NCBI GenBank assembly: GCA_965232885.1
Contig: CBDDQX010000002.1
Coordinates: 671,211 to 735,210, forward strand
DNA: 64,000 nt
Reading direction: 5' to 3'
Source: Dehalococcoidia bacterium
GTDB taxonomy: Bacteria > Chloroflexota > Dehalococcoidia > Lucifugimonadales > UBA3495
This document shows, one piece after another, positions 1,681 through 60,729 of the stretch (position 1 is the stretch's first letter; each line of letters starts with the position of its first letter). The notes beneath the pieces were generated by a model. The model did not search any database. It was not told the DNA's origin and saw only the letters and a program-made list of their open reading frames with translations. The translations under genes and the position numbers were made by a program.

Positions 1681-2961
1681 TCAGAATAAAGCCGACTGCC
1701 GTGAACCGTCCTTCGTTTGACCCCAGACCCGCACTGTCCCGTACTGCCCGTCGAATCCCGGTTCAACAGCAACCCGTCCGGTGCGAGCTTTCAGGATAGC
1801 CTGCGCCACCTGCTCGCTTGACGCCTGCCGGATGTCAGCCTCATCGGCCCAAGCCAGTGCTGCCAGTTCGCTGCCTAATTCGTCGCACAGCCTTCGATAG
1901 GCGTTCGCCACCGTCTTGCTGCGCCGGCCCACGCCCAGGGTTTCCGCCAGCAATTCTTCCAAGGGGACCAGCCGGAGGAAGGGTGGATGTTCGTCCATCG
2001 AACGGATGAATCCATCCGCTCCCGGGGTCGGCTCGCGGTTCCCTTCCGGTTCAGGCGCAGCCGACAGCGAATCAACACGATGCAGCACTCCCAGGGTCAT
2101 CGGGCGTCCGCAGACCGGACAAAGGCCGCTCCCCTGCGCCGCCGTCTCGCTGGGCGACTGACTTATTCCGCAGTTGCGGTGCCCGCTGTAGTGATACTTG
2201 CCTTCCTCCGGGTAAAACTCCACGGTGTAGGCAATGGAGTTTCGTTCCACGGCTTCCTTGAGGCCGGCATAGGTCGGTTTTCCCCTGAACACAGTGACTT
2301 CCCGCCCCAGATTCGGAGGTGAGTGGGCGTCAGAAAATGAGAGGATAGCCCGCCCCTGCATATCAGGAACCCTCCAGTTCATGGCCGGATCGCTGGAAAG
2401 ACCCGTTTCCACCGCCCTGATTAGCGGGGTCAACTCGCCGAAACATTCCTCAAGACTGTCGAAGCCGGACACGGACCCCAACAGTCCGTACCAGGGTGTC
2501 CAGACATGGGCGGGCACCACCATCGCCGCCGGGTCAATGTCCAACGCCAACGACGTAAGTTCAATCGCCGAGAGTCCGACAGAAGGGCGCCCGTCCCCTT
2601 CCAGCTTGACGCCTCGCTGCGACAGTTGCGCGTTGAAACGCTTCACGCATTCCAGGGACGACAGGAAAAGCAAGAGGTGAATCCTCCGCCCTCTGCCACC
2701 CTGGCGGTAAACGCAGCTGATTTCAGTGCCCAGGACGAAGTTCACGCCATCGTATTGGAAGGTTCCGGCGTCCACCTCCACGAGACCCGCCTCCAGTTCG
2801 GACAGCCACGCCGGGTGCGTGAAGTCGCCGGTGGCCAGCAGCCCGATGCCCTTGGTCCTGGCCGTGGCCGCCAGATTGGGCAGCGTCAGGTTCTTGCTAC
2901 ATGCGTAGGCGTAGCGGGAATGGATGTGCAGATCGGCGACGAATTGATTCTCGCGGTTCAT
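1681..2961 (-). CDS. PHP-domain endonuclease Q (EndoQ / TIGR00375)-like protein
   Basis: N-terminal ADLHIHSRYAYACS PHP motif, FYPEEGKYHYSGHRNCG, and a C-terminal zinc finger CPVCGRPMTLGVLHRV. Confidence 0.7.
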   Translation of the reverse strand: MNRENQFVADLHIHSRYAYACSKNLTLPNLAATARTKGIGLLATGDFTHPAWLSELEAGLVEVDAGTFQYDGVNFVLGTEISCVYRQGGRGRRIHLLLFLSSLECVKRFNAQLSQRGVKLEGDGRPSVGLSAIELTSLALDIDPAAMVVPAHVWTPWYGLLGSVSGFDSLEECFGELTPLIRAVETGLSSDPAMNWRVPDMQGRAILSFSDAHSPPNLGREVTVFRGKPTYAGLKEAVERNSIAYTVEFYPEEGKYHYSGHRNCGISQSPSETAAQGSGLCPVCGRPMTLGVLHRVDSLSAAPEPEGNREPTPGADGFIRSMDEHPPFLRLVPLEELLAETLGVGRRSKTVANAYRRLCDELGSELAALAWADEADIRQASSEQVAQAILKARTGRVAVEPGFDGQYGTVRVWGQTKDGSRQSALF

Positions 2962-2998
2962 CGCTGGAGTTTAGCACAAGGCCCATGGACAGACGTGC

Positions 2999-3610
2999 CT
3001 AACGGCCGTCCCAGCCACATTCGGCGGACAGCATCTCCATACCTGCGGTCACCTCGCTTTCATCTGGTTCCGCTGGCCTGCTTATCGTCGTCTCTGTGGA
3101 CGAGCCGTCGGAGTTTGTAGACTTCTCTGCTTCTTCTGAAAATCCAACACTCAGGAACCTGAGGAGCGTCGTTACTCCTTCCGGCGAAAGCTCGCAAAGC
3201 AACTCATTCAGGGCCTCTTCGCTCTGAATGGTTTGCAGCTTCTCAACACTGGCCCATACGTTGTACCGGCACGACTCGGCAACGTGTTTCACTGACCATT
3301 CCACCAGTTCATCCTGGTTGGGCGCGGGCTCGAAGACGGCGCTGGTGGTCACTTCACCCGCGCTGCTGGTATGAGTAGTAGTCGTGACTATATTCGACAT
3401 CTCGGTGTGTCTCGCAATCGCCCGCAGTTCCGGCTCCGTCAAGGCGCACCACGCACTTCCATGCTCCGAAAAGCTCTCGCTGTCAGTAATCTCCGCATAC
3501 TTGGCCCTGGCCGCCTCCGGGTCGTTCAGGTCGAAGGAGGCAGCCTGCCATTCGAGAGCCTGGGATATGAAAGTCGCAATAGCGAATAACAGGAAAACAA
3601 TAATCCACAT
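2999..3610 (-). CDS. hypothetical protein with an N-terminal hydrophobic anchor or signal and an acidic T/S-rich region
   Basis: 203-aa ORF. The N-terminus MWIIVFLLFAIATFISQA is hydrophobic. It is the last gene of an AT-richer minus-strand cluster. No family recognised. Confidence 0.45.
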   Translation of the reverse strand: MWIIVFLLFAIATFISQALEWQAASFDLNDPEAARAKYAEITDSESFSEHGSAWCALTEPELRAIARHTEMSNIVTTTTHTSSAGEVTTSAVFEPAPNQDELVEWSVKHVAESCRYNVWASVEKLQTIQSEEALNELLCELSPEGVTTLLRFLSVGFSEEAEKSTNSDGSSTETTISRPAEPDESEVTAGMEMLSAECGWDGR

Positions 3611-3621
3611 GATGCGCCTCC

Positions 3622-4002
3622 TTAGCTTCCGTTGATGGACAGGGCAATGATGATCAAGAAAACTATGTATGCTGCGATTGCCCCGGCTAGACAGAGCAGA
3701 AAAATTCCAAAGTTAGTGACAAGCTGGGAGCCCTTCCATTTGATACAGACAATGCCAGCCGGAATCGTCACCAAGATGAAGGTAGTCAACAGGTCAGTTC
3801 GACGAAAATTCCTCACAACTTGATATGAAGCGTAAGCCAGAGTCACCAGCACAAGCCCAACCACAGCAGCCCCCACCCACCGGGACAGGGGAGTTCTCCC
3901 CCACCTGATGAGGGAGAATCCCAGCAAGCTCGCCAGCAACAGCAGGAACCAGTAAAAACCTTCAAACTGCAAAGTGCTGTCCTTCATTTGCGCTCGGAGC
4001 AA
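3622..4002 (-). CDS. hypothetical integral membrane protein (about 4 TM segments)
   Basis: 126-aa ORF made of four hydrophobic stretches. It is tightly spaced with its neighbours (2-nt and 11-nt gaps). Confidence 0.45.
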   Translation of the reverse strand: MLRAQMKDSTLQFEGFYWFLLLLASLLGFSLIRWGRTPLSRWVGAAVVGLVLVTLAYASYQVVRNFRRTDLLTTFILVTIPAGIVCIKWKGSQLVTNFGIFLLCLAGAIAAYIVFLIIIALSINGS

Positions 4003-4004
4003 GC

Positions 4005-4295
4005 CTACTGACCGCCGTAACGATGCCAGGTTCTGCCATCGTAATACTGTGCATACTGTGCTTTTTCGATAATTGGTTCTGCTATGAAGCGAATAACAGG
4101 AAAATGATAAACAGCATGATATACCTCCTGGGGGTCCAGTTGAGGCTCCCTTTCTTCCGAGGTTGGGGCAACTGGATTATCCGGCAAGGCGCGAACCAGG
4201 GAAGCAGGTACTCCAACGCCCTTAAAATGATGGCTGGCTTCAGAGCTATCTGTCATCGCTGCGCTCTTCAGAATGACAGTACCACAAGCCACCAT
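4005..4295 (-). CDS. hypothetical protein
   Basis: 96-aa ORF, first gene downstream of the IS630 insertion. No family recognised. Confidence 0.35.
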   Translation of the reverse strand: MVACGTVILKSAAMTDSSEASHHFKGVGVPASLVRALPDNPVAPTSEEREPQLDPQEVYHAVYHFPVIRFIAEPIIEKAQYAQYYDGRTWHRYGGQ

Positions 4296-4389: not shown

Positions 4390-5528
4390 GTGATGGAGAA
4401 GAAGTACCGGGTCAAGCTGAGTGCGGAGGAGCGGGAGGAATTGAAAGCAATGGTTTCCAAGGGGAGTTGTGCCGCGTACAAGCAGACCCATGCCCGCATC
4501 CTGCTGTTGGGCGACGAAGGGCAAGAGGGAGGGGCTATGAAGGATGCAGAGATTGCCCGGGCCCTCCAGGTCGGCCGTGCGACGGTGGAGCGGGTAAGGC
4601 GCCGCTGTGTGGAGGAGGGTTTGGAACGGGCATTGGGGCGCAAGGAGCAACTGAACCGCCAGCGGAAGCGGTTGGACGGTGCGGGGGAAGCCCATCTGAT
4701 TGCCCTGGCCTGCGGGGAACCGCCCGAGGGACGGGCCAGTTGGACGCTGCAATTGCTGGCCGATGGACTGGTGGAAAGGGAGATAGTGGAGAGCATCAGC
4801 CATGAAACAGTGCGCCAGACTCTGAAAAAAACCAACTTAAGCCTTGGCTGAAAGAGTGTTGGTGCGTCCCTCCGCAAGGCAGCGCCGAGTTTGTCTGCGC
4901 CATGGAGGACGTGCTGAAAGTCTATCAGCGCCAGTATGGGGACAACGAGGTCCTGGTCTGCCTGGATGAGACCAGCAAGCAGCAGGTGAAAGAGACGCGC
5001 CAGCCGCGACCGGCCCAGCCCGGGGCGGTGGGCTCCTACGATTACGAATACGAACGCAACGGAGTGAGCAACCTGTTCATGTTGTTCGCACCGCTGGAGG
5101 GGTGGCGCCGGGTGGCAGTGACGGACCGGCGTGCCAAAGTCGATTGGGCGCAGGTGGTCAAGCAACTGGTGGACGAGGACTACCCGGACAAAGACCGTAT
5201 CGTACTGGTGATGGACAATCTGAACACGCATCACCCCAGTTCATTGTATGAGGCCTTTGAACCTGCCGAGGCCCGGCGCATCGCGGAGCGGCTGGAAATT
5301 CACTACACGCCCAAGCACGGCAGTTGGCTGGATATGGCCGAGATTGAAATCGGGGTGTTGTCCCGCCAATGCCTGAACCGTCGCATTCCGGATCAAACAA
5401 CTCTAAGGCGGGAAGTGGCAGCGTGGCAGGACCGGCGCAACCAGGACAGGATACGAGTGGACTGGCGCTTTACCACCGCAGACGCTCGCCTAAAATTGAA
5501 GTCTCTATATCCATCAGTCCAAAACTGA
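4390..5528 (+). CDS. IS630-family DDE transposase, made from two frames by a -1 frameshift
   Basis: The first ORF (4390-4851) is HTH-like. The second frame continues as NQLKPWLKECWCVPPQG...MEDVLKVY and carries DDE-type motifs (CLDETS, VMDNLNTHH, HGSWLDMAEIE). Confidence 0.8.
4825..4831 (+). other. A7 slippery heptamer, candidate programmed -1 ribosomal frameshift site of the IS630 transposase
   Basis: In CTG AAA AAA ACC, shifting -1 on the A-run joins the two transposase ORFs into the conserved LKPWLK junction. Confidence 0.7.
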
Positions 5529-5535
5529 TGGCCTA

Positions 5536-5712
5536 CTAGGCGGCTGGCATAAAGATTGTGAATATGAGAAAAATGGCAACGGAGAATCCAAGCAGCACTA
5601 TACCCAACCACCAGAGCAAAGAGCCCTTATCCGTTTTCCAAACCATAACAGCCCCTGGATCCCCTGGAATTAAGACAATGAAAGCCAATGCCAGTAAGTT
5701 CATCCAAATCAT
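5536..5712 (-). CDS. small hydrophobic membrane protein (58 aa from the internal ATG)
   Basis: MIWMNLLALAFIVLIPG...LLWWLGIVLLGFSVAIFLIFTIF gives two TM segments. The ORF-track start at 5757 lies inside the MITE, so it is rejected. The stop codon TAG contains the IS630 target TA. Confidence 0.35.
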   Translation of the reverse strand: MIWMNLLALAFIVLIPGDPGAVMVWKTDKGSLLWWLGIVLLGFSVAIFLIFTIFMPAA

Positions 5713-5732
5713 TGTCTGCCTCCCTAAATTAA

Positions 5733-5957
5733 GGGATTTATATCGTATTTTACCCACACACCGTTAAAGCAGGCACTCCTGCCAAAGACAATGGCATCCT
5801 CAAGCCCCGGAGGCCTTATAAACCGTCATTCCCGCGAAAGCGAGTATCCATGTTGCCGGGTTTCAGCTTATTTGCCGGAGCCGGGGGTCTCTGAATTCCC
5901 GCTTTCGCGGGAATGACGGGATTTTCCTAACGCTGGGTAAAATTCGATATAATTCCC
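5733..5957 (+). mobile_element. 225-bp MITE, copy 1
   Basis: Read by eye as 100 % identical to 37838-38062. The 24-bp TIRs are GGGATTTATATCGTATTTTACCCA and the reverse complement of TGGGTAAAATTCGATATAATTCCC (22/24). The 8-bp direct repeat TAAATTAA flanks both ends. There is an internal 20-bp perfect inverted repeat (5823-5842 and 5900-5919). Confidence 0.85.
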
Positions 5958-5978
5958 TAAATTAACGGGCTAATTCTC

Positions 5979-6013
5979 GGTTAGCGGCTCCCTAATCTAG
6001 GGAGCCGCTAACC
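5979..6013 (-). terminator. perfect 16-bp stem hairpin downstream of the 6033-6371 gene
   Basis: GGTTAGCGGCTCCCTA-atc-TAGGGAGCCGCTAACC. No clear U-tract follows, so terminator function is uncertain. Confidence 0.4.
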
Positions 6014-25659: not shown

Positions 25660-27102
25660 CTACGGGCAATAATAGCGGTCCACGCTATCCGGCACGGACA
25701 AAATAAAGTCGCCGCGGTTAAAACTGGCTGGGACACATCCACTCAACTGGTTCCCGTTGAGGGTCAGCCATGTTAGGTTGGCAAGGTTGCCCAGTTCTGG
25801 CGGTATCTCCCCACTCAATTGGTTCTCGGAGAGATTCAGATGCCACAAATTGGCGAGTTTGCCTAGTCCCGGCAGTATCTCCCCACTCAACTGGTTCTCG
25901 GATAGGGACAGGTATGTCAGGTTGGTGAGGCTGCCCAATTCCGGCGGTATTTTCCCGCTCAACTGGTTCTCGGAGAGACCCAGCGCTTCCAGGTTGGCGA
26001 GGTTGCCCAATTCTGCCGGTATCTCCCCGCTCAACTGGTTTTCGCCGAGATACAAGGATTCCAAGTTGGCGAGGTTGCCCAATTCTGCCGGTATCTCCCC
26101 GCTCAACTGGTTCCTGGAGAGTTCCAAAAATTTCAAGTCTGCGAGGTTGCCCAGTTCTGCCGGTATCTCACCGTTCAACTGGTTCCAGCGGAGGTATACC
26201 TCTGTTAGGTTGATGAGTCTACCCAGTTCCGGCGGTATCTCCCCGCTCAACCCGTTTTCGCGGAGGTTCAGCACTTCCAGGTTGGCGAGGCTGCCCAACT
26301 CCGGCGGTATCTCCCCGCTCAACTGGTTCCCATAGAGGTTCAGCACTTCCAGGTTGGCGAGGCTGCCCAACTCTGGCGGTATCTCCCCGCTCAACTGGTT
26401 CCCGTAGAGGTCTAGCTCCCACAGTTTGACAGGGATGCCCCGCTGGAGGTCCAGCTTTGTCAAGTTGGCGAGATTGCCAAGATCCGCCGGTATCTTCCCG
26501 CTCAACTCGTTTGCGCCGAGATCCAGCTCTGTCAAGTTGGTGAGGCTACCCAGCTCCGGCGGTATCTTCCCTCTCAACCCATTCCCGAAGAGGACCAGCT
26601 TGGTGACGCGGCCTCTGCTGTCAGAGGTGACACCTTCCCATTCGCCCAAAGGCGCGTCACTCAGCCAGTTATCATTGTCGATCCAATTCGGTCCTCTAGT
26701 AGCGCTAAACAGGGAGAGCAACGCTTCCCGGTCCGTTTCGGGTGAAGTCTGCACCATCAGGGCCACGGTGGTAGCCCTCACCGGTTCGACGCTCTCCGCT
26801 GTCGGCTCGGCGGTGGTCTGTCTAGAGGATACCCTGCCTACCGGCTCATGGGTGGCACGTCCTGAGTCGGGTAGGTCTGTCGGCTTGGGTGTGGTCTCTC
26901 CAGAGGATGACCTATACGCAGGCTCGGCGGTGGCCGTGGGCATGAGTTCGACGGTGCCCCCGGACGTAGGCGACGGCTCGGTGGTAGCATGTTCCGAGGG
27001 TGACTCGTCCGACGGCTCATATGAGCTGCCACAGGCCAGCATCAGCAACGGCAGAAGCAGTGCAATGGCGAGGATTCCTAGGAAAAGTCGTGGTATTCTC
27101 AT
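25660..27102 (-). CDS. secreted or lipid-anchored leucine-rich-repeat protein with about 12.5 plant-specific-type 24-aa LRRs
   Basis: Signal with a lipobox-like LLMLAC|G. A T/P/S/E-rich linker and an LRRNT-like cap (REALLSLF...WEGVTSDSRGRVTKLVL) follow. The repeats read LxLxxNQLSGEIPxELGNLxNLxx. Confidence 0.8.
   Translation of the reverse strand: MRIPRLFLGILAIALLLPLLMLACGSSYEPSDESPSEHATTEPSPTSGGTVELMPTATAEPAYRSSSGETTPKPTDLPDSGRATHEPVGRVSSRQTTAEPTAESVEPVRATTVALMVQTSPETDREALLSLFSATRGPNWIDNDNWLSDAPLGEWEGVTSDSRGRVTKLVLFGNGLRGKIPPELGSLTNLTELDLGANELSGKIPADLGNLANLTKLDLQRGIPVKLWELDLYGNQLSGEIPPELGSLANLEVLNLYGNQLSGEIPPELGSLANLEVLNLRENGLSGEIPPELGRLINLTEVYLRWNQLNGEIPAELGNLADLKFLELSRNQLSGEIPAELGNLANLESLYLGENQLSGEIPAELGNLANLEALGLSENQLSGKIPPELGSLTNLTYLSLSENQLSGEILPGLGKLANLWHLNLSENQLSGEIPPELGNLANLTWLTLNGNQLSGCVPASFNRGDFILSVPDSVDRYYCP
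25720..26620. repeat. 72-bp tandem DNA repeats (coding LRR units)
   Basis: Period-72 repetition of ...GGTTGGCGAGGTTGCCCAATTCTGCCGGTATCTCCCCGCTCAACTGGTT... Two adjacent units at about 26281-26424 are nearly identical. Confidence 0.8.
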
Positions 27103-27199
27103 CTCGATCCACTCATTATGTTTACTATGGGGCGTCGTCAGCGGATGTGCGTTTGTCGGGCTAACCCGGCGCTGTCGGCGCATATGACCTGGCGGCGCT

Positions 27200-28600
27200 T
27201 CAGCCGGGTGAACGAAGCAGCCCGGCAGCGGCAACCGTCTCCCGGTTCACGGTGTCCGGCAAGCGGTAGCGGTGCCACAGCGCGACGCCCGATATTGCCA
27301 GCGCCCCCGCAATCACCGGCGCCAACCGCAGGCCCAGCGGGTCTTCAGTGGTGTCTCCCAGTAGCAGTACCAAGGCCAGAATCGCCGGGGGCAGCGAGAA
27401 TGTAATCTTCTCGAAGAAGTTCTGTGCCGCATAGAACATCGCCTCTCGCCGCTCTCCGGTGAGCATCGCGTCGTAGTCGGCGATATCCGCGGTTAAAACC
27501 TTGGGCAACATGAATACGGCTGCCATGGGGATGCCGGCAGCGAAGGCCATTGCCAGTCCTTGTACCAGCAGGCCGCTGCTGGAGAACAGGCCCACCAGCC
27601 CCAATAGCGGGAAAATGACGCCGCTGGCAATCAGGCAGGTCCCATATACCCGGCGTTTGCTGAACTGGAACCGGACAATCAACCTCCAGAAAACCATGCC
27701 ACTGATTACCGCCCCCAAAATCGCCAAGCCGAATATGAGGCCCGACACTGCCCCTTCATCCTCCGCCTGCAACACTTGGGAAGCGAAATAAGGTATCCAG
27801 CCCATCATGACACCGACGCCAGTGGTGAACATCACGAAGGTGGGCATATAGTAGATGAACTGCGGGTTTCGTATCGTTTCACGCATACCACGCCAGAAGC
27901 TAACTCTAGCGGGCGTGGTTTGGCGAGGCGCGTGTTTCCATATCGCCGCCAGTGAGACGTAACGGAAAACTGCGGCCAGCGCCGCCAGTATGACGCCAAC
28001 CACCTGAAAGCCAAGGGCATCCACCAAAGGGCCGCTGACGGACAGGCCAAGAACAGCGCCGATAATGGCGAACAGGTAGATAAGGCCCCCCAGGTTCATC
28101 CGGTCGGAAGCGCCGTGAGTAACCTCCGGCACCAGCGCCTCCAGCGCGCCGCTGGACATCGTGGCGGCAGTGAAGAACAGCTCCAGCGCAATCACGATGT
28201 ACAGAGCGTTCCATAGGCTGGCCTCTTCGGTGGGCAGGAACCAGACGAGGGCAGCAAAGAGCGCATAGAAGGGCGTGCTGAACAGGATAAAGGGGATGCG
28301 TCTTCCCCATCGGCTGCGTGTGCGATCGCTCCACCAGCCGATGAGCGGGTCAGTAAAAGCGTCTATGAAGCGCCCGGCGAATATCAGAAACCCGGCGAAT
28401 ACCCTGGCATCAATACTGAACCCCAAGAGAGAGACATCAGGGACTCTAGCAATTCCTTCTCCGAGTGGAGGAACAAGGAAAAAAAGTATCCACGATTGCC
28501 GGAAATAGCCAATGGCCTGGAGACCTATATGGTCCGAGGCGAACAGCATCTTGCTCAACAGCGGCATTCGAGCGGTAGTGGCCTGTCCCGTTTCATTCAC
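27200..28600 (-). CDS. MFS transporter of the glycoside-pentoside-hexuronide (GPH/MFS_2) type
   Basis: DAFTDPLIGWWSDRTRSRWGRRIPF signature and about 12 TM segments. Confidence 0.75.
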   Translation of the reverse strand: MNETGQATTARMPLLSKMLFASDHIGLQAIGYFRQSWILFFLVPPLGEGIARVPDVSLLGFSIDARVFAGFLIFAGRFIDAFTDPLIGWWSDRTRSRWGRRIPFILFSTPFYALFAALVWFLPTEEASLWNALYIVIALELFFTAATMSSGALEALVPEVTHGASDRMNLGGLIYLFAIIGAVLGLSVSGPLVDALGFQVVGVILAALAAVFRYVSLAAIWKHAPRQTTPARVSFWRGMRETIRNPQFIYYMPTFVMFTTGVGVMMGWIPYFASQVLQAEDEGAVSGLIFGLAILGAVISGMVFWRLIVRFQFSKRRVYGTCLIASGVIFPLLGLVGLFSSSGLLVQGLAMAFAAGIPMAAVFMLPKVLTADIADYDAMLTGERREAMFYAAQNFFEKITFSLPPAILALVLLLGDTTEDPLGLRLAPVIAGALAISGVALWHRYRLPDTVNRETVAAAGLLRSPG

Positions 28601-37809: not shown

Positions 37810-37837
37810 GGGGTGTCCTCTGCAAGTAGTTCAGAAT

Positions 37838-38062
37838 GGGATTTATATCGTATTTTACCCACACACCGTTAAAGCAGGCACTCCTGCCAAAGACAATGGC
37901 ATCCTCAAGCCCCGGAGGCCTTATAAACCGTCATTCCCGCGAAAGCGAGTATCCATGTTGCCGGGTTTCAGCTTATTTGCCGGAGCCGGGGGTCTCTGAA
38001 TTCCCGCTTTCGCGGGAATGACGGGATTTTCCTAACGCTGGGTAAAATTCGATATAATTCCC
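37838..38062 (+). mobile_element. 225-bp MITE, copy 2
   Basis: Identical to 5733-5957. It is flanked by its own 8-bp direct repeat TTCAGAAT (37830-37837 and 38063-38070). Confidence 0.85.
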
Positions 38063-38095
38063 TTCAGAATGATGGCGCGGGTTGAGGTTTCCAGC

Positions 38096-60233: not shown

Positions 60234-60703
60234 CCATCCACACCGACGGTTCCTGCCTCGGCAACCCAGGGCCTGGAGGGTACGGCGTCGTCCTGGAACA
60301 CAACGGCCACGAGAAAGAGATGTTTGGCGGGTTCCGCCGCACCACCAACAATCGCATGGAAATCCTGGCTGTCATAGTTGGCTTGGAGGCCCTGATGGAG
60401 ACCTGCTCCGTAACGGTATACAGCGATTCCCGTTATGTGGTGGACGCCATTGAAAAAGGCTGGGCCAAGAAGTGGCAGGCCAACGGATGGATGCGCAACA
60501 AGCGGGAGCGCGCCGTTAACCCCGACCTGTGGGAGCGGCTGCTCAATGCCATGGGCAAGCACGAGGTTGAACTCCGATGGGTGCGCGGACACGCTGGCAA
60601 CGAGGGCAACGTCCGCGCCGACAAGTTGGCCGTGGCAGCCGCCAATGGCACCGGCCTCCACCCCGACGAAGGATATGAGAAACCCCGTCCGTCATTCCCG
60701 TGA
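60191..60703 (+). CDS. rnhA: ribonuclease HI
   Basis: IHTDGSCLGNPGPGGYG, TTNNRMEILA and VRGHAGNEGNVRADKLA. Confidence 0.85.
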   Translation: MPMPESGGLSLRHVTIHTDGSCLGNPGPGGYGVVLEHNGHEKEMFGGFRRTTNNRMEILAVIVGLEALMETCSVTVYSDSRYVVDAIEKGWAKKWQANGWMRNKRERAVNPDLWERLLNAMGKHEVELRWVRGHAGNEGNVRADKLAVAAANGTGLHPDEGYEKPRPSFP

Positions 60704-60716
60704 AAATGGGAATCCG
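60690..60716. repeat. solo GTCATTCCCG-loop-GGGAAT hairpin, related to the internal arms of the 225-bp MITE
   Basis: CGTCATTCCCGTGAAAATGGGAATCCG. It contains the rnhA stop codon TGA. Confidence 0.5.
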
Positions 60717-60729
60717 GTGGAGATGAAGA

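Follow-up and report, generated by a model that had tools for sequence, protein, structure and literature searches.

What moves a 225-bp non-coding sequence that stands twice, letter for letter the same, in one 64,000-nucleotide stretch of a Dehalococcoidia genome (the window), and what does it carry along? An earlier note on this DNA, made from the letters alone, described the two copies as an apparently active miniature inverted-repeat transposable element (MITE) whose mobilising transposase must lie elsewhere or be unknown. The element is very probably a non-autonomous member of the IS1595 family of DDE transposons: its ends are nearly those of transposase-bearing elements in related genomes, each copy is bordered by its own 8-bp duplication, and the site of one copy is empty in relatives. 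Its interior appears to be built from two small hairpins of a published repeat type, the Neisseria Transformation Sequence (NTS).

Two identical copies and an empty site

The two copies, their duplications and the ends of copy 1 are located as follows.

5733..5957, + strand: MITE copy 1, 225 bp, 100% identical to 37838-38062
37838..38062, + strand: MITE copy 2, between the terminator of the sdh operon and the start codon of PIG-L
5725..5732: left target-site duplication of copy 1, TAAATTAA, repeated at 5958-5965
5958..5965: right target-site duplication of copy 1, TAAATTAA, by direct reading
37830..37837: left target-site duplication of copy 2, TTCAGAAT, by direct reading
38063..38070: right target-site duplication of copy 2, TTCAGAAT, by direct reading
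5733..5756, + strand: left terminal inverted repeat of copy 1, GGGATTTATATCGTATTTTACCCA
5934..5957, - strand: right terminal inverted repeat of copy 1, reverse complement GGGAATTATATCGAATTTTACCCA

Comparison of the two loci revealed 0 differences over 225 bp, with similarity ending exactly at the element boundaries and flanks that are unrelated to each other. The terminal inverted repeats are 24 bp long, GGGATTTATATCGTATTTTACCCA matching the reverse-complemented right end GGGAATTATATCGAATTTTACCCA at 22 of 24 positions. When up to three mismatches are allowed, the end 23-mer is found at four places in the window, which are the four element ends (0.00 expected from shuffled sequence). GC content is 51% in copy 1 and 60% in the window. 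The only open reading frames (ORFs) inside the element, of 41 amino acids in copy 1 and 61 amino acids in copy 2, run in the same frame through the hairpin arms. Terminal inverted repeats, differing 8-bp duplications, unrelated flanks and the lack of a real ORF establish that the MITE reading is right. With its 225 bp and 24-bp ends, the element falls within the ranges for bacterial MITEs, which measure about 70-300 bp and have terminal inverted repeats of 15-30 bp. The earlier note had reported the unchanged recurrence, the 24-bp ends with 22 matches, a separate 8-bp direct repeat for each copy (TAAATTAA and TTCAGAAT) and no ORF, all of which direct comparison bears out. Its conclusion that the copies arose by independent transposition and not by segmental duplication is likewise upheld, the two 8-mers lying outside any larger shared block.

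The history of the copy 2 site can be read from four related genomes (L014-L017 among the retrieved sequences), reached through homologues of PIG-L, in which the gene order sdhA-sdhB-CCG subunit, PIG-L and aminotransferase is conserved. The closest of these, L016, has ~92% DNA identity to the window across the block, and the sole break in the alignment is a 228-bp gap at copy 2: L016 is contiguous there and has one ACCCTGAA, in place of the two ATTCTGAA that border the element in the window. The site is uninterrupted also in L017 (88% identical), in L015 (~83% identical, with a single ACTCTGAA) and in L014. Judged from these alignments, the insertion of copy 2 is derived, and probably recent. 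With no difference between the copies, and ~8% divergence from the closest genome in which the site is empty, the transpositions would be recent on that scale. The earlier note had staked its reading on the existence of further copies or of empty sites in related genomes, and both were found: apart from the four empty sites, a relative of the element (L001) is 72% identical to it over the full length.

Partner elements of the IS1595 family

Further members of the family were sought by an exact scan of one genome per species with the end pattern GGGAWTTATATCGWATTTTACCC. The scan returned 8 stretches, all in metagenome-assembled genomes (MAGs) of Dehalococcoidia/Chloroflexi. End-pattern scans of metagenome and viral collections yielded 0 matches each; the family seems confined to a lineage of which these collections contain little.

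One of the retrieved stretches, L007, provides the link to a transposase. In it, the end is followed immediately by a 312-amino-acid ORF that matches the Pfam families DDE_Tnp_IS1595 (PF12762, 3.5e-38) and Zn_ribbon_IS1595 (PF12760, 1.7e-08) as well as the NCBIfam model transpos_IS1595 (NF033547, 2.8e-55). The right end of the L007 element is degraded. Homologues of its transposase, with 82-93% identity, lie within full-length elements of 2.7-3.4 kb in which both ends are intact (L009-L013). Over 23 bp, the ends of these elements and of the window element are the same but for one base at most.

L009: full-length element, 2741 bp, duplication AAAATTAT; its right end is L003
L010: full-length element, 3400 bp, duplication AAATTGAA
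L011, L012 and L013: full-length elements, 3372 bp each, at least 99.97% mutually identical, in three different contexts

Elements L010-L013 carry the end GGGAATTATATCGTATTTTACCC on both sides; a single base sets either end of the window element apart from it. The first 23 bases of the window element's right end are identical to the right end of L009, and its left end resembles the right end of the full-length elements over ~40 bp at 85%. Members of the IS1595 family produce 8-bp duplications and encode a zinc finger plus a DDE_Tnp_IS1595 domain (PMC8101967); all three of these family features are present in the partner elements, which have 8-bp duplications, a zinc ribbon as well as the domain DDE_Tnp_IS1595. 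Longer elements with the same ends and an 8-bp duplication, for which the earlier note had advised a search, thus exist and encode an IS1595 transposase. The note was correct that the mobilising transposase is not in the window; that its family is unknown no longer applies.

Among plasmid-borne IS1595 transposases, none exceeds 45% identity to that of the partner elements, and those are labelled only as "IS1595 family transposase". By these comparisons the partner is an unnamed, distant IS1595 member. The end GGGAATTAT resembles ggnnatTAT, the presumed ISNwi1-group consensus of ISfinder. Autonomous and non-autonomous elements occur together in a related MAG, OZ250156.1 (L002, L004, L007). The presence of autonomous copies that are at least 99.97% identical in three contexts shows that the family is currently active in related populations. 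In one sample, the identical 3372-bp elements of L012 (2412-5783) and L013 (344-3715) show reciprocally swapped flanking 8-mers, ATATATAG and CTTTTTTT, which is what recombination or inversion between copies, or an assembly join across the repeat, would leave.

The full-length elements have a further constant component. Near the right end of every full-length IS1595-type element lies a gene for a conserved protein of 82-85 amino acids with two CxxC pairs, at these positions:

L011, 5481-5735: CxxC...CxxC protein
L010, 5499-5756: CxxC...CxxC protein
L009, 4450-4698: CxxC...CxxC protein
L002, 7110-7364 (minus strand): CxxC...CxxC protein

These proteins are 73-87% mutually identical. Variable passenger genes, of 267 or 412 amino acids, stand between the transposase gene and the gene for the CxxC protein, and a Pfam search with the small CxxC ORF and the passenger genes gave no matches. 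Descriptions of the family give it one gene, that of the transposase; the gene for the CxxC protein is another that is conserved.

The same ends also bound shorter elements with unrelated interiors.

L008: 101 bp, without a clear duplication
L001: 223 bp, no duplication, 5 mismatches in one end
L006: 302 bp, duplicated 8-mers identical at 7/8 bases
L005: 598 bp, without a clear duplication
L004: 293-1521, 1229 bp, perfect duplication TTTCTTTT, a 190-amino-acid ORF and no transposase

Element L005 has its right 63 bp in common with the window element at 89%. The 190-amino-acid ORF of L004 gave no match in Pfam, and L004 resembles a mobile insertion cassette rather than a MITE. An origin of the window element by simple internal deletion of a full-length element was considered and rejected, because only ~25-40 bp at its ends resemble the full-length elements.

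As a MITE, the element is ordinary: others related to IS1595, with ends of ~25 bp and duplications of 8 bp, have already been documented. A close precedent, by its description, is found in Haloquadratum walsbyi, where a 165-bp MITE whose inverted repeats measure 25 bp and direct repeats 8 bp is present in 7 copies and has ISHwa6 as its partner (PMC3852290, Table 4). Both elements are short and non-coding, with terminal inverted repeats of ~25 bp, 8-bp direct repeats and an IS1595 partner; they differ in that the host of the former is archaeal, that 7 copies compare with 2 visible here, and that an interior made of hairpin repeats is unreported there. The partner elements L009-L013, in turn, resemble IS1595 insertion sequences, including those with passenger genes, in their zinc-ribbon and DDE transposase, their ends starting with GG and their 8-bp duplications. 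They depart from these in the full-length copies' extra CxxC...CxxC protein, and the window element departs from them in lacking a transposase. Neisseria Correia/NEMIS elements, RUP, ERIC and Nezha MITEs share the small size, the terminal inverted repeats, the target duplication, the position next to genes and the stable transcribed hairpin, but have other ends, another duplication length and another partner family; Correia elements, for example, make a TA duplication. What the element adds is a family in Dehalococcoidia and the identification of its previously unnamed partner elements.

The hairpin pair in the interior

The internal inverted repeat at 5823-5842 and 5900-5919 is perfect over 20 bp and extends to 28 nt at 89%. 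The whole element is predicted to fold into one long hairpin, as DNA (-54 kcal/mol, z = -6.45) and as RNA (-101.7 kcal/mol, z = -7.97), in agreement with the fold that the earlier note had proposed. An Rfam search of both copies matched no family. The perfect repeat and the long hairpin stand, but this is not a generic MITE hairpin, as each arm of the repeat is a small hairpin in itself. The hairpins of this kind in the window are listed below.

5824..5851, + strand: NTS-like hairpin, also resembling CGTC-tagged REP (see below), degenerate left arm of copy 1, CGTCATTCCCGCGAAAGCGAGTATCCAT, 3 mismatches to the NTS consensus
5891..5918, - strand: hairpin of the same kind, good right arm of copy 1, CGTCATTCCCGCGAAAGCGGGAATTCAG, 1 mismatch
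37929..37956, + strand: NTS-like arm of copy 2, 3 mismatches
37996..38023, - strand: NTS-like arm of copy 2, 1 mismatch
60690..60717, + strand: solo NTS-like hairpin, CGTCATTCCCGTGAAAATGGGAATCCGG, 3 mismatches, stem kept by a compensatory change

The arms were scored against the NTS consensus CGTCATTCCCGCGMAVGCGGGAATCYRG of PMC11893778, i.e., by the criteria used in Neisseria, where a match is defined by at most one mismatch. In 50 shuffles of the window, 0 matches to the NTS consensus occurred. The single mismatch of the right arm is a T for C just after the palindrome; two of the three mismatches of the left arm are in the stem. Both arms of L001 have 2 mismatches each, and they are separated by the same 39-bp spacer as in the window element. 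A C immediately 3′ of the palindrome is found in the left arm, in the solo site and in both L001 arms. The NTS hairpin is the substrate of SsnA, a site-specific single-strand DNase of the GIY-YIG type, and the C just after the palindrome is the base most critical for SsnA binding; Ssn-related motifs (SRMs) are widespread and often flank ssnA, and how NTS repeats expand is left open in that study (PMC11893778).

The same arms can be described as repetitive extragenic palindromic (REP) sequences. CGTC-tagged REPs combine the CGTC tag with a stem that begins in AT, a loop of 4-5 nt and a tail of CCA; they lack a transposase of their own and frequently form head-to-head dimers in intergenic positions downstream of genes (Di Nocera et al. 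2013, PMC3733652). With the layouts CGTC-ATTCCCGC-GAAA-GCGAGTAT-CCA (left) and CGTC-ATTCCCGC-GAAA-GCGGGAAT-TCA (right), both arms display the tag, the AT-starting stem, a loop of 4 nt and a CCA-like tail. The GTAG tag of the GTAG REP/RAYT system is absent from the arms, the tag being CGTC. Taken together, these sequence matches suggest that the interior is a convergent dimer of the lineage's own CGTC-REP/NTS (Ssn-related) hairpins and is not derived from the transposase gene. The pair resembles the NTS and SRM repeats of PMC11893778 in matching CGTCATTCCCGCGMAVGCGGGAATCYRG with 1 and 3 mismatches and in the convergent orientation seen in pairs flanking ssnA. It is unlike them in that its arms enclose a 39-bp spacer and no gene, that the critical C is a T in the better arm, that ssnA is missing from the window, and that the pair is enclosed by DDE-transposon ends. 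The published survey recorded CGTC repeats in five phyla, Chloroflexi not among them, with no associated transposase (PMC3733652), whereas the dimer described here is embedded in a MITE with a known transposase class.

The hairpin is not confined to the element. The solo copy at 60690-60717, a member of the repeat family that makes up the MITE interior, lies outside any MITE and has no IS1595-type end nearby; as read from translations only, it stands between RNase H-like and MoaC-like genes. In a related Dehalococcoidia genome whose GroEL is 94% identical (L139), four free-standing NTS-like hairpins (2836-4083) are found within the ~1.3 kb that lie upstream of GroEL. All of them have ACCCCC as a 3′ extension, as does the right arm of the MITE, and are without IS1595-type ends or duplications. 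Exact matches to the consensus 23-mer GTCATTCCCGCGAAAGCGGGAAT are present in at least 120 unrelated metagenome contigs (L018-L137). Among the matches listed, these contigs range in GC from 30 to 72%, conservation is confined to ~27 nt, and the flanks are unrelated; so strict a conservation of 27 nt across very different genomes is striking. Other hairpin families adjoin the GTCATTCCCGCGAAAGCGGGAAT motif, e.g., gtcattgcgagtcccgacaaagtcggg in L048.

Convergent NTS pairs with spacers of 3-107 bp are common in the metagenome contigs, and the motif almost never lies inside terminal inverted repeats; both statements refer to the matches listed. Soil and activated-sludge contigs contain units of the form NTS(+), GIY-YIG gene, NTS(-), at 217-581 in L037 and 1042-1405 in L021, in which NTS copies ~308 bp apart flank a protein of 96-97 amino acids with a GIY-YIG signature. 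The L037 protein matches PF01541 at 7.8e-16, and tblastn finds a homologue with 64.5% identity to it in the L021 protein, so that the published NTS-ssnA-NTS arrangement (PMC11893778) is reproduced. Outside the MITE family, 12 of 17 convergent NTS pairs have no flanking inverted repeat; the remaining 5 have one at or barely above the level of shuffled controls, with no duplication. Against this background the window copies and L001, all with the 39-bp spacer, stand out among convergent pairs. The idea that NTS pairs are generally packaged in elements bounded by inverted repeats was rejected on account of the 12 pairs without such a repeat.

There is an outside chance that the MITE family is a vehicle by which an IS1595-type DDE transposase spreads CGTC-REP/NTS hairpin dimers. 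If so, with every insertion an Ssn-type single-strand nuclease would gain one more site, and transposition would be coupled to local control of recombination, or of the processing of incoming DNA, next to genes. As free-standing hairpins without IS1595-type ends exist in the lineage, the MITE would at most be one minor route of spread. This cargo is the less ordinary side of the element, which offers a concrete, testable example of hitch-hiking: an NTS/CGTC-REP dimer is demonstrably copied to new sites inside a DDE-type MITE in Chloroflexota, with exact target duplications and with empty sites in relatives. A literature search found no paper that links dRS3/NTS/SRM hairpins to MITEs, nor any on MITEs in Dehalococcoidia.

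Insertion sites, competing explanations and neighbouring genes

Both copies sit in the short space between a hairpin and the start of a gene. Copy 2, read in the orientation of the genes, is preceded by the sdh operon's terminator hairpin (38126-38101, minus strand) and followed by the start codon of PIG-L (37809, minus strand), 28 nt upstream of which it lies. On one side of copy 1 is a hairpin with a 16-bp stem (5979-6013); on the other is an ORF for a small membrane protein, with a GGGAGG ribosome-binding site and a probable ATG (5712) that the copy precedes by 20 nt. The two copies have the same orientation relative to the downstream minus-strand gene. When duplications were counted over the window copies plus related elements, the eight recovered contained 8 G or C in 64 positions, corresponding to 12.5% GC as against 60% for the window. 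The target preference is strongly AT-rich, and this preference is sufficient to explain the placement between terminator and ribosome-binding site.

The following sequence of events would account for the element. An IS1595-type transposase with an N-terminal zinc ribbon and a DDE_Tnp_IS1595 domain, encoded elsewhere in the genome, would recognise the ~23-bp ends. Staggered cleavage at AT-rich 8-bp targets and subsequent repair would then generate the 8-bp duplications. Such targets would, in a genome of 60% GC, mostly be found in the short spacers between terminators and ribosome-binding sites, where both copies landed, and with each move the convergent hairpin pair would be copied to a new place.

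Several points weigh against the assignment of the element to a mobile IS1595-type family. Only two copies are visible in the 64-kb window, which contains no IS1595-type transposase (best tblastn E = 0.81), and apart from ~25-40 bp at either end the element has no sequence in common with the full-length elements. No empty site was established for copy 1, as the 2-4 kb that precede GroEL do not align in L138 or L139. As for the interior, neither arm is a perfect SsnA substrate by the Neisseria criteria, since the good arm has a T where PMC11893778 places the binding-critical C and the other arm has two stem mismatches, and the window contains no ssnA-like gene (best E = 0.28). The earlier note's term "active" is affected by the first of these points: the element is a MITE, but mobility in this genome would have to depend on a transposase supplied from outside the window. 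The copies might also be orphaned fossils: the IS1595-type transposase that produced them would have disappeared from the genome, and they would no longer be mobile. The missing transposase, the low copy number and several decayed-looking relatives (L001; L005 and L008, which lack clear duplications; L007 with its degraded right end) agree with such a history. It nevertheless seems rather doubtful, given that the copies have 0 differences in 225 bp and perfect duplications while the nearest empty-site relative is ~8% diverged, that autonomous copies with at least 99.97% identity exist in three contexts, and that 64 kb is a small sample of a several-megabase genome. An exapted regulatory element, which acts on the downstream gene through an outward promoter or an RNA hairpin, would be compatible with a MITE origin. 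In support of this idea, both copies stand 20-28 nt upstream of minus-strand start codons, share their orientation and directly follow a terminator-like hairpin, the fold of the RNA is highly stable, and TATA-like motifs are present at the element ends: by eye, the gene-proximal end has TATAAAT 4 nt from the terminus, and TTAACG-N18-TATAAA, and the opposite end has a perfect TATAAT without a -35 element. However, no sigma-70-like site passed a promoter scan in either copy, Rfam gave no match, and a shared orientation of two copies is a 50% coincidence, the AT-rich target preference alone explaining their position. Moreover, the differences between L001 and the window element change the loops of individual hairpins and are not compensatory for the long stem (three related sequences). 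A regulatory role is thus speculative, and improbable on present evidence.

Two further explanations dispense with the IS1595 partner altogether. The mobile unit could be a REP/NTS-type element that is spread by a single-strand mechanism, through an Ssn GIY-YIG nuclease or a RAYT-like enzyme, the outer repeats being incidental. The interior does match the NTS/CGTC-REP motif, and NTS pairs flank ssnA in the manner of a mobile element in L037 and L021, an arrangement also discussed in PMC11893778. The duplicated unit, however, ends exactly at the IS1595-type ends and not at the hairpins, and 8-bp duplications are a DDE signature. Free-standing NTS copies (at 60690 and four in L139) lack such ends and duplications, most convergent pairs outside the MITE family have no flanking inverted repeat (12 of 17), and the GTAG tag that RAYT proteins require (PMC3733652) is absent, which makes this explanation highly improbable. 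Segmental duplication or gene conversion between the two loci would account for the perfect identity of the copies, but has a negligible probability: identity stops exactly at the element ends, each copy has a different 8-bp direct repeat, and the orthologous site carries a single target 8-mer in four genomes. The flanks thereby exclude it. Non-autonomous membership in the IS1595 family is the reading that best accommodates the ends, the duplications and the empty sites together.

Other repeats and insertion sequences are found in the window. An IS630-type element at 4390-5528 lies ~200 bp from copy 1; its transposase is split into HTH_32 (4390-4851) and DDE_3 (4902-5528) ORFs. A similar HTH_32 and DDE_3 pair is also found directly upstream of the IS1595-type element in L010, indicating that these regions accumulate insertion sequences. 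On the same side of copy 1, a 42-bp repeat (81% identical) occurs at 3581-3622 and 4088-4129, on minus-strand ORFs for small hydrophobic proteins, where it covers the ribosome-binding site and the N-terminus (MWIIVFLLFA... and MLFIIFLLFA...). The ORF at 5536-5712, just downstream of copy 1, is of a similar kind. Finally, a 72-bp tandem repeat of 8-9 units within window positions 25660-27234 (minus strand) is the coding repeat of a 524-amino-acid leucine-rich-repeat protein with a unit of 24 amino acids, ...NQLSGEIPPELGxLANLxxLxL....

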